Assembly: GCF_056712565.1 (NCBI RefSeq)
Contig: NZ_CM160072.1
DNA: 64,000 nt
Strand: one strand, 5' to 3'
Shown here: positions 894-64,000 of the stretch, one piece after another
Position numbering within the stretch: position 1 is the first letter of the stretch
Layout: each line of letters begins with the position of its first letter
Program-made: the position numbers and the translations under genes
The notes under the pieces: model-generated
Told to the model about the DNA's origin: nothing
The model's input: the letters and a program-made list of their open reading frames with translations, nothing else
Databases searched by the model: none

Positions 894-1668
894 AATTCTC
901 CAAAATTTATATTTAAGTAGCTGAATAAAGAGAGTTAACAATTAAGTTATTCTGTTATTGCTTATAAAACAAGAATCATTCTTGATTGGATGTTGCCCTG
1001 AGAATATAGTTTCCATGGTTATTACATTTCACGAAGAATGATAATATCTTTAAATTACAAGGACACCTATTCACAACAAGTTTATTGCTGCACTTGTTGT
1101 AGAGAGTATTTGTAAAAACATTTTATGTCGCTAAATAACATGACGATTTCATTATGCATGTTATTTATAAACAGCGACTAAACAGAATATTATTGCGAAC
1201 AAGGGAAGTGTCAGGAAAGGTCAAGAGGTACTAATAGTTTATATGGCTATAAACATTAGCTATGATTAATATTTGCCTGGTGAAACTAACACCAAATTGC
1301 TGTAACTCTCTTTGAATCATAAACTGAAGGATGATGCAGCACAGTTCCTCGTGGACTATCCTGGCTACTACATGACCAAACGCGGATATCATCCTCGAGC
1401 AGTCAACTCTGGCCATCTTTTTACTCAGCTATGAGGACCTGATCGTCGACTTTGCTATCTGCATGATGAATCTCCTCAGCAGCAGATGCAGTATTTACCG
1501 AAATGAATTCCATGAATAATGCAGTAATTAGTAGTGCTTTCATATCTGATACCTGTTTTAAACGATATATTTGAAAGTTGACGAATATCGGAAATAGCTT
1601 CCTCCTTCTTGATCTGTAAATATACAGTTCTAAGCTGTCATAAGACTGACTGTCATATGACAACGTTG

Positions 1669-50524: not shown

Positions 50525-51778
50525 GTGAGCCGTACTACAACTGTTGATGGCGCTCCGGCAAGCGACACTGACAAGCAAAGCATTTCTCAGTCAAATCAAT
50601 TTATTAAACGCGGTACGCCGCAATTTATGCGCGTCACCCTGGCGCTTTTCTCTGCCGGACTGGCAACTTTCGCACTTCTCTATTGTGTGCAACCTATCCT
50701 TCCGGTGCTTTCACAAGAGTTTGGCTTAACGCCCGCGAACAGTAGTATTTCACTGTCCATTTCAACGGCGATGTTGGCTATCGGTTTGCTGTTTACTGGC
50801 CCGCTATCCGATGCCATTGGTCGCAAACCAGTGATGGTCACGGCGCTACTGTTGGCCTCCATTTGTACGTTACTTTCGACAATGATGACCAGCTGGCACG
50901 GCATTTTGATTATGCGCGCCTTGATTGGGCTTTCGTTAAGTGGCGTGGCAGCCGTTGGCATGACTTATCTTAGCGAGGAAATCCACCCCAGTTTCGTGGC
51001 CTTTTCAATGGGGTTGTATATCAGCGGCAACTCAATTGGCGGCATGAGCGGACGCTTAATTAGCGGTGTCTTCACGGACTTTTTTAACTGGCGAATTGCT
51101 CTGGCGGCAATCGGTTGTTTCGCGTTGGCCTCGGCGTTGATGTTCTGGAAAATCCTCCCTGAATCACGCCATTTTCGCCCGACTTCGCTGCGCCCTAAGA
51201 CGTTATTCATCAACTTTCGTCTGCACTGGCGTGACCGGGGATTACCGTTATTGTTCGCAGAAGGCTTTTTGCTGATGGGGTCGTTCGTCACGCTGTTTAA
51301 TTACATCGGCTATAGGTTGATGCTTTCCCCCTGGCATGTCAGTCAGGCCGTGGTTGGCTTATTATCGCTGGCTTATTTGACCGGTACATGGAGCTCACCC
51401 AAAGCCGGAACCATGACCACCCGCTATGGACGCGGTCCGGTGATGTTGTTTTCGACGGGGGTTATGCTGTTTGGTTTACTGATGACCTTATTCAGCTCGC
51501 TGTGGCTGATCTTTGCCGGAATGTTACTCTTCTCAGCCGGATTCTTCGCAGCCCACTCCGTTGCCAGCAGCTGGATCGGCCCCCGCGCAAAACGCGCTAA
51601 AGGCCAGGCCTCCTCGCTGTATCTGTTCAGTTACTATCTGGGGTCGAGTATTGCCGGGACGCTGGGTGGTGTTTTCTGGCATAACTATGGCTGGAACGGC
51701 GTCGGCGCATTTATTGCTCTGATGCTGGTCATTGCTCTGCTGGTCGGGACGCGTTTGCATCATCGTCTGCACGCCTGA
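50525..51778 (+). CDS. ynfM: MFS transporter YnfM, 417 aa
   Basis: Full-length MFS protein. Confidence 0.85.
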   Translation: MSRTTTVDGAPASDTDKQSISQSNQFIKRGTPQFMRVTLALFSAGLATFALLYCVQPILPVLSQEFGLTPANSSISLSISTAMLAIGLLFTGPLSDAIGRKPVMVTALLLASICTLLSTMMTSWHGILIMRALIGLSLSGVAAVGMTYLSEEIHPSFVAFSMGLYISGNSIGGMSGRLISGVFTDFFNWRIALAAIGCFALASALMFWKILPESRHFRPTSLRPKTLFINFRLHWRDRGLPLLFAEGFLLMGSFVTLFNYIGYRLMLSPWHVSQAVVGLLSLAYLTGTWSSPKAGTMTTRYGRGPVMLFSTGVMLFGLLMTLFSSLWLIFAGMLLFSAGFFAAHSVASSWIGPRAKRAKGQASSLYLFSYYLGSSIAGTLGGVFWHNYGWNGVGAFIALMLVIALLVGTRLHHRLHA

Positions 51779-52085
51779 AAAAATAAGTCCGGACTGAGGT
51801 AAATACCCGTCCGGACTTATTGCCTGCTCAAACCAACGTTAATAGCCATCCTAAAATAGACGAAGCGCCAGCCAATTCCCGCAGCGCATCTAGCGTCATC
51901 AGGATTATAAGTACCCAAATAAACGGATTCATTTTGCTGTGTGTCATTTATTACTGATGCGCAGTTATTCTACCGCTTTGTAAGTAGTAAAATAGTTAAC
52001 ACGATCAAGACTACTATTATTGGTAGCTAAATTTTCCTTAAGTCACAATACGTTATTATCAACGCTGTAATTTATTCAGCGTTTG

Positions 52086-52099
52086 TACATATCGTTACA
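52086..52099 (+). promoter_or_regulatory. RstA box TACATATCGTTACA upstream of asr
   Basis: Exact match to the tandem TACA-N6-TACA RstA consensus, ~105 nt upstream of the asr start. Confidence 0.5.
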
Positions 52100-52202
52100 C
52101 GCTGAAACCAACCACTCACGGAAGTCTGCCATTCCCAGGGATATAGTTATTTCAACGGCCCCGCAGTGGGGTTAAATGAAAAAACAAATTGAGGGTATGA
52201 CA

Positions 52203-52511
52203 ATGAAAAAAGTATTAGCTCTGGTTGTTGCCGCTGCTATGGGTCTGTCTTCTGCTGCCTTTGCTGCAGAGACTGCGACCACACCTGCTCCGACTGCGAC
52301 GACCACCAAAGCAGCGCCTGCGAAAACCACACATCATAAAAAACAGCATAAAGCAGCACCTGCCCAGAAAGCGCAGGCGGCTAAAAAGCATCATAAAAAT
52401 GCCAAAGCTGAACAGAAAGCTCCTGAACAAAAAGCGCAGGCAGCGAAGAAACACGCCAAGAAACACAGCCATCAGCAACCGGCAAAACCTGCTGCACAAC
52501 CCGCAGCGTAA
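52203..52511 (+). CDS. asr: Acid shock protein Asr, 102 aa
   Basis: [21 protein letters not shown] signal peptide; Lys/Ala/His/Gln-rich repeats. Confidence 0.9.
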
Positions 52512-52603
52512 GTTTTCAACAGTAATGCTGGCGCGCCCCCTCGCGCCTGAAAATTACGGTGCTAAGCGGGTAACGTTTAGCACCGCCTTTAGCGGAGGGT
52601 AGT

Positions 52604-52687
52604 ATGGTGGGCCGTTATCGCTTTGAGTTCATTCTTATCATCCTTATTTTATGCGCACTGATTGCCGCCCGTTTTTATCTTTCCTGA
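52604..52687 (+). CDS. ydgU: Small hydrophobic protein, 27 aa (MVGRYRFEFILIILILCALIAARFYLS), consistent with YdgU
   Basis: Hand-translated ORF with GGAGGG Shine-Dalgarno; single TM helix; identity recalled, not verified. Confidence 0.45.
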   Translation: MVGRYRFEFILIILILCALIAARFYLS

Positions 52688-52786
52688 TCGTAGTTATCTG
52701 ATTTTACTCCCACTTTCATCCCGTCCCGTCTATAGTATTTATGAGGGTTTGCTTTTAATAATCATAATTACCCACCAGAGTGTGAT

Positions 52787-53608
52787 ATGCGTACAACCAT
52801 TGCTGTAGTGTTGGGTGCAATTAGTTTGACGTCTGCTTTTGTGTTTGCAGATAAACCAGACGTTGCCAAATCGGCAAACGATGAGGTCAGCACCCTGTTT
52901 TTTGGTCATGATGATCGTGTGCCAGTGAATGACACGACCCAATCACCGTGGGATGCGGTTGGCCAACTGGAAACGGCCAGCGGCAATTTATGTACGGCGA
53001 CGCTGATTGCACCCAATCTGGCATTAACGGCAGGACACTGTTTATTGACGCCGCCAAAGGGTAAAGCCGATAAAGCGGTAGCGCTGCGTTTCGTGTCAAA
53101 TAAAGGTCTTTGGCGCTATGAGATCCACGACATAGAAGGCCGCGTTGATCCGACACTGGGAAAGCGGTTAAAAGCAGATGGGGATGGCTGGATTGTACCT
53201 CCCGCAGCTGCGCCCTGGGACTTCGGTTTGATTGTGCTACGTAATCCCCCTTCTGGCATTACACCGTTGCCGTTATTTGAGGGAGATAAAGCCGCGCTTA
53301 CCGCCGCATTAAAAGCGGCTGGTCGTAAAGTGACTCAGGCGGGCTACCCTGAAGATCATCTCGATACGTTGTACAGTCATCAAAACTGTGAAGTGACTGG
53401 CTGGGCGCAAACGTCGGTGATGTCGCATCAGTGCGATACCTTGCCGGGTGACAGCGGTTCGCCTCTGATGTTGCATACCGATGACGGCTGGCAATTAATT
53501 GGGGTGCAAAGCTCGGCTCCTGCCGCGAAAGATCGCTGGCGCGCCGATAACCGGGCCATTTCTGTTACCGGTTTTCGCGACAAGCTGGATCAACTGTCGC
53601 AAAAATAA
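52787..53608 (+). CDS. ydgD: Trypsin-like serine protease YdgD, 273 aa
   Basis: Signal peptide; TAGHC and GDSGSP catalytic motifs. Confidence 0.85.
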
Positions 53609-62856: not shown

Positions 62857-62984
62857 CTTTTTACCTTAACACTTCCATAACAAGTCATCAGTAGAATACC
62901 TGATGAAACCTTGTTTAGAAACGATTGATAGTAAGTAAAAACAGTGCGGTGTATTGTGACGTTTTTATATCTACCGTGAATGTT

Positions 62985-63704
62985 ATGAACACTATCGTAT
63001 TTGTGGAAGATGATGCGGAAGTCGGTGCACTGATTGCCGCATACCTGGCAAAACATGATATGCAGGTTACCGTAGAGCCGCGCGGCGACCGGGCCGAAGA
63101 AACTATTCTGCGAGAAAATCCGGATTTGGTGTTACTCGACATCATGCTACCAGGCAAGGACGGCATGACCATTTGTCGTGATTTACGCGCAAAGTGGTCC
63201 GGACCGATTGTTCTTCTAACCTCTCTCGATAGCGATATGAACCACATCCTGGCACTGGAAATGGGCGCCTGCGACTATATTCTCAAAACGACGCCCCCTG
63301 CTGTTTTGCTAGCGCGTTTACGCTTGCATTTGCGTCAGAATGAGCAAGCCACAGTGACCAAAGGTATTCAGGAAACGTCTCTGACTCCCTACAAAGCCCT
63401 GCATTTCGGCACGTTGACCATCGATCCCATCAACCGCGTAGTCTCCCTGGCTAACACTGAAATCTCGCTCTCGACAGCTGATTTCGAATTATTGTGGGAA
63501 TTAGCTACCCATGCCGGGCAAATCATGGACCGCGATGCATTGCTGAAAAATTTACGCGGCGTCAGTTATGACGGACTGGATCGTAGCGTGGACGTGGCTA
63601 TTTCGCGGTTAAGAAAAAAACTGCTCGATAACGCCGCAGAACCTTATCGTATTAAAACCGTGCGTAACAAAGGCTATCTTTTTGCGCCTCATGCGTGGGA
63701 ATAA
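62985..63704 (+). CDS. rstA: OmpR-family response regulator RstA, 239 aa
   Basis: Start MNTIVFVEDDAEVG; ORF track over-extends 20 codons. Confidence 0.9.
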   Translation: MNTIVFVEDDAEVGALIAAYLAKHDMQVTVEPRGDRAEETILRENPDLVLLDIMLPGKDGMTICRDLRAKWSGPIVLLTSLDSDMNHILALEMGACDYILKTTPPAVLLARLRLHLRQNEQATVTKGIQETSLTPYKALHFGTLTIDPINRVVSLANTEISLSTADFELLWELATHAGQIMDRDALLKNLRGVSYDGLDRSVDVAISRLRKKLLDNAAEPYRIKTVRNKGYLFAPHAWE

Positions 63705-63707
63705 GCG

Positions 63708-64000
63708 ATGAAAAAACTGTTTATCCAGTTTTACCTGTTATTGTTTGTCTGCTTCCTTGTGATGTCTCTGCTGGTCGGGCTGGTGTACAAATTTACCGCC
63801 GAACGCGCAGGCAAACAGTCGCTGGATGATTTGATGAACAGTTCGCTGTATCTGATGCGCAGCGAATTGCGTGAGATCCCCCCACACGACTGGGGTAAGA
63901 CGCTGAAAGAGATGGATTTAAATCTCTCTTTCGATCTGCGTGTCGAGCCACTGAGTAAATACCATCTTGATGATATTTCCATGCACCGGCTGCGTGGCGG
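63708..64000 (+). CDS. rstB: Sensor histidine kinase RstB, 5' portion only (runs off the window end)
   Basis: ATG 3 nt after the rstA stop; N-terminal TM segment MKKLFIQFYLLLFVCFLVMSLLVGL. Confidence 0.9.
   Translation, partial: MKKLFIQFYLLLFVCFLVMSLLVGLVYKFTAERAGKQSLDDLMNSSLYLMRSELREIPPHDWGKTLKEMDLNLSFDLRVEPLSKYHLDDISMHRLRG

Follow-up and report, generated by a model that had tools for sequence, protein, structure and literature searches.

[quoted passage not shown] This 14-mer is almost certainly the functional operator from which phosphorylated RstA activates the σ70 promoter of the asr-samT operon, and no contrary evidence was found. The box itself is not new. What is mildly new here is a map of its conservation, together with two conserved elements beside it, i.e., a 24-bp block directly 3' of the box and an element in the asr leader. 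The analysis covered a window of 64,000 nucleotides, i.e., the whole stretch of DNA taken from contig NZ_CM160072.1 of the RefSeq assembly GCF_056712565.1. The features of the promoter and its regulator genes are as follows; promoter positions are counted from the putative transcription start at 52154.

52086..52099 (+): RstA box TACA-N6-TACA, TACATATCGTTACA, at -68..-55, centre -61.5
52083..52123 (+): conserved upstream promoter block of 41 bp, i.e., TTG + RstA box + CGCTGAAACCAACCACTCACGGAA, delimited by information content
52100..52123 (+): conserved block CGCTGAAACCAACCACTCACGGAA, 24 bp, -54..-31, from the 36-promoter alignment
52115..52132 (+): reported Pho box (PhoB site) CTCACGGAAGTCTGCCAT, -39..-22, placed by the coordinates of PMC9026648 with +1 = 52154
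52142..52147 (+): -10 hexamer TATAGT; T1, A2, and T6 invariant in 36/36 promoters
52154 (+): putative transcription start, an invariant A 7 nt after the -10 hexamer, giving a 49-nt leader
52157..52173 (+): predicted leader hairpin GGCCCC-GCAGU-GGGGUU, +4..+20 of asr mRNA
52203..52511 (+): asr CDS, acid-shock periplasmic protein of 102 aa; Shine-Dalgarno GAGG at 52191-52194
52605..52688 (+): samT (ydgU), small membrane protein of 27 aa; ORF from the sequence, function from PMC13425233
62985..63704 (+): rstA, OmpR/PhoB-family response regulator of 239 aa, Asp52 present
63708..64000 (+): rstB, sensor kinase, first 97 of approximately 433 codons, cut by the window end

Position and uniqueness of the RstA box

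The two TACA half-sites were found at 52086-89 and 52096-99, and form a direct repeat with a 6-bp spacer and a 10-bp period. The box ends 103 nt 5' of the asr ATG (52203). This fits the first-pass annotation, in which an RstA box had been placed at these positions, approximately 105 nt upstream of asr. When the 64-kb window was searched with the published consensus TACATNTNGTTACA, the asr box was the one exact match (0.00 expected; 0/100 shuffles), and it was still the sole match when up to one mismatch was allowed (0.27 expected). The position of the box was borne out, and the site was unique in the window.

The site had also been called an exact consensus match. As a count this is correct, i.e., the asr box agrees with TACATNTNGTTACA at 12/12 specified bases, but as evidence it is circular. 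The consensus was reportedly derived by Ogasawara et al. in 2007 from footprints on the asr and csgD promoters. The site in the K-12 csgD promoter is TACATTTAGTTACA, and the positions common to the asr and csgD sites are exactly TACATNTNGTTACA. The exact match at asr is therefore uninformative alone, and independent evidence is needed. The non-circular evidence is the conservation of the box.

The looser pattern TACA-N6-TACA was matched five times in the window, against 1.14 expected. Three of the further matches were rejected, being placed inside a CDS or in a terminator stem. One of these, at 26137, is a palindrome by-product and not a regulator site, as it is part of the stem of a strong hairpin resembling a terminator. 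This hairpin (26125-26165), i.e., GGCCCCTTGT...ACAAGGGGCC followed by a T-run, was observed at the end of mgtS/mgtT. The sole other intergenic match was TACAGTACTTTACA at 38403-38416, in the divergent intergenic region of ynfC/ynfD. The same sequence appears as the untested RstA-box candidate 'z2572' in Table S4 of an EHEC study (PMC6824119).

Identity to other E. coli genomes

The window was recognized as E. coli. The asr promoter region (52040-52210, 171 bp) was 100% identical to that of K-12 MG1655, and 841 bp around asr were 100% identical to those of NU14, UM146, APEC O18, and ATCC 11775, which are E. coli of the ExPEC/B2 type. Judged from sequence identity, the host strain is of the B2/ExPEC type and is not K-12. 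The 841-bp asr region was present in 5422/5426 complete E. coli genomes, with most of them showing 95-99% identity, and the 49-bp core (52079-52127) was at least 99% identical in 5405 of these 5422 genomes. Because the promoter is identical to that of K-12, the published results for K-12 and LF82 apply to exactly the DNA at 52040-52210.

RstA and its published action at asr

The cognate regulator gene rstA was found intact at 62985-63704, as annotated, and lies approximately 10.9 kb downstream of the box. The first-pass annotation had reported rstAB in the same window. This is right for rstA, but only the first 97 codons of rstB are present and the window end cuts the rest. The receiver domain of RstA matched K. 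pneumoniae RstA 4NIC (E = 2e-63), and the DNA-binding domain matched K. pneumoniae 4NHJ (E = 3e-56), with the stretch DRSVDVAISRLRKKLLDNA identical.

The genomic SELEX and the RstA consensus were reported in Ogasawara 2007 (J Bacteriol 189:4791), as cited in PMC4117788. The latter study describes the binding of an RstA dimer to the tandem TACA repeat and takes the E. coli asr box as the canonical repeat (PMC4117788). Purified RstA shifted the asr promoter of strain LF82 in EMSA, and deletion or scrambling of the box abolished the shift; asr expression was down in rstAB mutants (PMC11135836). [quoted passage not shown] In that assay, RstA bound and activated with or without acetyl-phosphate, and hence a dependence on phosphorylation was not seen. 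In a published fluorescent fusion of Pasr, the induction at pH 5 was RstBA-dependent.

These studies, on identical DNA, demonstrate binding, box dependence, in vitro activation, and rstA dependence in vivo. The annotated statement of an RstA binding site in the asr promoter holds, as this promoter is the K-12 sequence for which box-dependent RstA binding is published. Two checks had been proposed, i.e., EMSA or footprinting with RstA, and an acid-shock test of an asr reporter in cells deleted for rstA. Both are in the literature already: the shift is positive and is lost with the box (PMC11135836), and the induction of Pasr under acid depends on RstBA. One further data set needs care. The 'asr' EMSA primers of PMC6824119 map to 52270-52291 and 52489-52504, i.e., within the asr CDS. 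The fragment given by the listed primers is without the box, and therefore that EMSA is no test of the RstA box.

The rstA gene is controlled by PhoQP in response to low Mg2+ (PMC4117788). PhoP-box-like direct repeats, TGATGAAACCTTGTTTA and TGTTTAGAAACGATTGA, were observed 5' of rstA at 62901-62928, and are consistent with this published control. A perfect PhoP-box match, TGTTTAGTCGCTGTTTA, was also seen at 1168-1184 (-). The PhoP-box pattern was not enriched in the window (24 observed vs 17.5 expected).

Promoter anatomy and proposed mechanism

In the published description of the asr promoter, the RstA box covers -77..-55, the Pho box covers -39..-22, a 9-bp spacer leads to the -10, and A is found at -17 and -13 (PMC9026648). 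The end of the RstA box at -55, the Pho box, the spacer, and A-17/A-13 all fit the present sequence only if +1 is 52154. The transcription start is probably this A, and the geometry of -61.5 depends on that numbering. With this putative start, the asr box occupies -68..-55, which agrees with the published -77..-55 and is a promoter distance compatible with activation.

A consensus σ70 scan of 51700-52800 called zero promoters, with no acceptable -35. In an activator-dependent promoter a missing consensus -35 is expected, so the scan is no argument against the -10 at 52142-47. An in-frame ATG at 52176, 27 nt 5' of the annotated start, extends the mechanical asr ORF to 111 aa. Across other genera, GAGG and the ATG at 52203 were conserved but this upstream ATG was not, and therefore the annotated start of the 102-aa Asr is right.

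Other small elements were seen around the promoter. The motif ACGCTG/CAGCGT occurs three times within 52061-52106, making perfect 7- and 8-bp inverted repeats, of which the upstream arms are E. coli-specific. Between ynfM and asr, a 39-aa ORF at 51828-51947 (-), named 'KPN_01571 family protein' in RefSeq, is divergent from asr and starts 139 bp away from the RstA box. Directly after ynfM, a perfect 13-bp inverted repeat was found at 51782-51821 (AATAAGTCCGGAC / GTCCGGACTTATT). This repeat may act as a terminator in both directions, serving the convergent small ORF as well.

In the proposed mechanism, acid pH would make RstB and RstA active, and low Mg2+ would add to this via PhoQP control of rstA. 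RstA would then bind the box as a head-to-tail dimer, with one winged-helix domain per TACA half-site, 10 bp apart. The site, centred at -61.5, would lie on the same helix face as a promoter with a good -10 (TATAGT) and no recognisable -35, and from there the dimer would recruit RNA polymerase in a class-I-like manner. The transcript from approximately 52154 would encode Asr and SamT, both feeding back on RstB. Three parts of this scheme are our inference: where exactly transcription starts, the geometry of -61.5, and the recruitment in a class-I-like manner. For the end of the scheme, the literature reports that asr and samT form an operon, that both products feed back on RstB, and that SamT is an RstB inhibitor (PMC13425233).

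Conservation across Enterobacterales

By a scan with the Asr protein in one genome per species, 35 other asr loci were collected, and with the window included 36 promoters were aligned. The loci were from Escherichia (including E. albertii), Citrobacter, Enterobacter, Klebsiella oxytoca, Kluyvera, Cedecea, Pluralibacter, Siccibacter, Shimwellia, Superficieibacter, Serratia, Rahnella, Rouxiella, and Hafnia. TACA-N6-TACA was present on the coding strand in 35/35 other loci, 116-122 nt before the ATG. Both TACA half-sites were invariant in 36/36 promoters, and GTTACA was nearly so. In the spacer, by comparison, four central positions varied, and 12 different box variants were found among the 36 promoters. 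The orthologue-wide box is TACA-W-W-N-S-G-TTACA, without conservation of the 'T' that the consensus has at position 7. Invariant half-sites with a free spacer are, at the level of the alignment, the hallmark of two half-sites recognized by a dimeric protein. By the same comparison, the RstA box is an ancestral feature of Enterobacterales.

Conservation sets in abruptly at 52083, 3 bp 5' of the box, and stops at 52123. The mean information was 1.67-1.70 bits within 52083-52123, against 0.31 bits in the upstream flank, which is unalignable, and 0.43 bits in the 18 bp between 52123 and the -10, which are free. To the published results, the present analysis adds as observations the position and uniqueness of the box, its identity to K-12, this deep conservation, and the intact regulator gene.

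The asr loci themselves were variable in content. A samT-like small ORF was found 3' of asr in 18 of the 35 other loci. The length of Asr ranged from 69 to 166 aa, owing to a varying repeat number. Rahnella bonaserana, R. bruchi, and Enterobacter sp. Ag1 had two asr paralogues each, placed on different contigs (L013/L034, L024/L027, and L023/L029), and every paralogue came with an RstA box of its own, the conserved block 3' of it, and the leader hairpin.

Alternative explanations for the site

It is hardly credible that the match arose by chance, or as a by-product of local inverted repeats that could fold into a hairpin or terminate transcription from upstream. A perfect 8-bp inverted repeat, TTCAGCGT (52075-82) and ACGCTGAA (52099-106), does bracket the box, and a third copy, AACGCTG, is at 52061-67. 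However, the number of exact matches expected by chance is 0.00, no T-run accompanies the repeats, and no terminator was called at this place by the scan. The left arms of the repeats carry 0.0-0.4 bits outside E. coli, whereas the box is invariant, and it is this conservation pattern that excludes the explanation. The inverted repeats were likewise rejected as hairpin, terminator, or second operator on the lack of conservation of their left arms outside E. coli. Other regulators of the same family were also considered as occupants of the box. OmpR could target the site mainly or additionally through similar GTTACA-type tandem half-sites, so that the box would integrate EnvZ-OmpR signals, but this is improbable. 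The second half-site GTTACA appears to resemble OmpR half-sites. [quoted passage not shown] At asr, however, the pH 5 induction of Pasr depends on RstBA, the in vitro activators were RstA for Pasr and OmpR for PomrB (PMC13425233), and in the literature reviewed no report of OmpR binding at asr was found.

The older model from 1999, in which asr is under phoBR control, would make PhoB the direct activator at the 14-mer and leave RstA an indirect role only. It draws on the first report of asr as a gene under phoBR control that is induced at low phosphate (Suziedeliene 1999, as related in PMC9026648). This is very improbable for the 14-mer. The reported Pho box lies elsewhere, as an element of its own at -39..-22, i.e., 52115-52132 (PMC9026648), and RstA alone activates Pasr in vitro (PMC13425233). 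The 14-mer, with its 10-bp period, TACA cores, and position at -68..-55, is also unlike CTGTCAT repeats with 11-bp spacing; as a candidate Pho box, i.e., two CTGTCAT-like 7-mers in 11-bp repeats over the -35, it was rejected. The second half of the Pho box (52124-52132) has CTGCCAT here, CTGTCAC in E. coli E69, and CTGTCAT in E. albertii, and its conservation is limited to Escherichia. The good Pho half-site is thus confined to this genus, whereas the TACA repeat is universal. It is the separate Pho box and its Escherichia-only half-site that exclude PhoB as the protein reading the 14-mer. As far as the alignment indicates, PhoB control may have been added, in one lineage, to an asr promoter that was ancestrally controlled by RstA.

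The conserved block and the leader hairpin

With RstA as the protein reading the 14-mer, the extent of the operator has to be considered. The block at 52100-52123 was as conserved as the box (mean 1.70 bits, 12/24 columns invariant, and mean pairwise identity 0.88 in the 36 promoters), and its invariance spans Escherichia to Hafnia, Serratia, and Rahnella. Given that these 24 bp 3' of the box are equally conserved, the 14-mer may not be the whole operator. A tentative reading is that the 14-mer is the high-affinity part of a 41-bp composite operator (52083-52123), and that activation also needs the block at -54..-31. The block could be occupied by a weaker second RstA dimer near -41.5, by a co-regulator, or by the RNA polymerase α-CTD together with σ region 4.

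Several points are in favor of the composite operator. The information of the block equals that of the box, while both flanks are low. The conserved stretch of 41 bp corresponds to about four 10-bp units, and (T/A)ACC is found 10 bp after the second TACA, with TCAC another 10 bp on, i.e., in phase with the TACAs. The published assignments give only -77..-55 to RstA and -39..-22 to PhoB (PMC9026648), and the Pho box, by its first half, covers only the 3' part of 52100-52123. On the other side, the same assignment ends the RstA region at -55 (PMC9026648). The third and fourth 'half-sites' have just AC in common with TACA. Inside the block, the spacer is conserved, unlike the free spacer of the RstA box, and the block is therefore more than a weaker version of this box. 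Moreover, the csgD RstA box of K-12 is without such an extension, i.e., no block similar to CGCTGAAACCAACCACTCACGGAA was found after it.

The second conserved element is in the leader. The leader block at 52153-52172 was near-invariant (mean 1.85 bits in the 36 promoters), and the element CAACGGCCCCGCAGTGGGGT (52153-52173) is predicted to fold, at +4..+20 of asr mRNA, into a hairpin with a 6-bp stem and the loop GCAGU. By RNAalifold, the leader stem showed zero covariation; the stem is invariant, so nothing varies. The fold energy of the 62-nt leader was not better than that of shuffles (z = -0.22). No family was matched in an Rfam scan of 51000-53500 at E<=1, and a literature search on the asr leader returned nothing relevant. 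It is possible, though rather doubtful, that the promoter combines the 41-bp composite operator, in which the -54..-31 block would be an undescribed site for a second RstA dimer or an acid-response co-regulator, with the hairpin at 52157-52173 as a separate post-transcriptional control element.

In strain engineering, the asr promoter serves for acid-inducible expression (PMC9026648), and it is the standard reporter of RstBA activity. The finding adds nothing new on RstA, and its modest value is the conservation map, in which the constraint on the block at -54..-31 and on the leader hairpin is as strong as that on the box; the literature reviewed assigns a function to neither.

Comparison with known systems

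The operators of the OmpR/PhoB family, i.e., the Pho, OmpR F/C, and PhoP boxes, are direct repeats approximately one helical turn apart. A dimer, induced by phosphorylation, binds such operators head-to-tail, and the promoter that follows has a weak -35. The asr box differs from the other operators of the family in its TACA half-site, and its centre is at approximately -61.5, not over the -35 as in Pho boxes. The architecture of these operators is discussed in PMC4117788.

The closest known system is the asr RstA box of K-12 (Ogasawara et al. 2007), which is the same box in the same promoter with the same downstream gene. The site is without any difference, and only the host differs, the strain of the window being of the B2/ExPEC type. 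The csgD box TACATTTAGTTACA has, like the asr box, a tandem TACA with a 6-bp spacer and GTTACA as the second half, and RstA binding to it is likewise lost on deletion or scrambling of the box (PMC11135836). Unlike the asr box, it has different spacer bases, its site is also used by OmpR, and the CGCTGAAACCAACCACTCACGGAA block does not follow it.

The asr box of K. pneumoniae was used in the crystal of the RstA DNA-binding domain with DNA (4NHJ; PMC4117788), in which two domains are placed on the tandem repeat; both the promoter and the regulator are orthologous to those of the window. In K. pneumoniae, the box is an imperfect repeat, i.e., TACA/TACT, with very unequal affinities of the half-sites (PMC4117788), whereas the E. 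coli box is a perfect repeat. The K. oxytoca box, TACATACGGTTACA, is a perfect repeat, as in E. coli.
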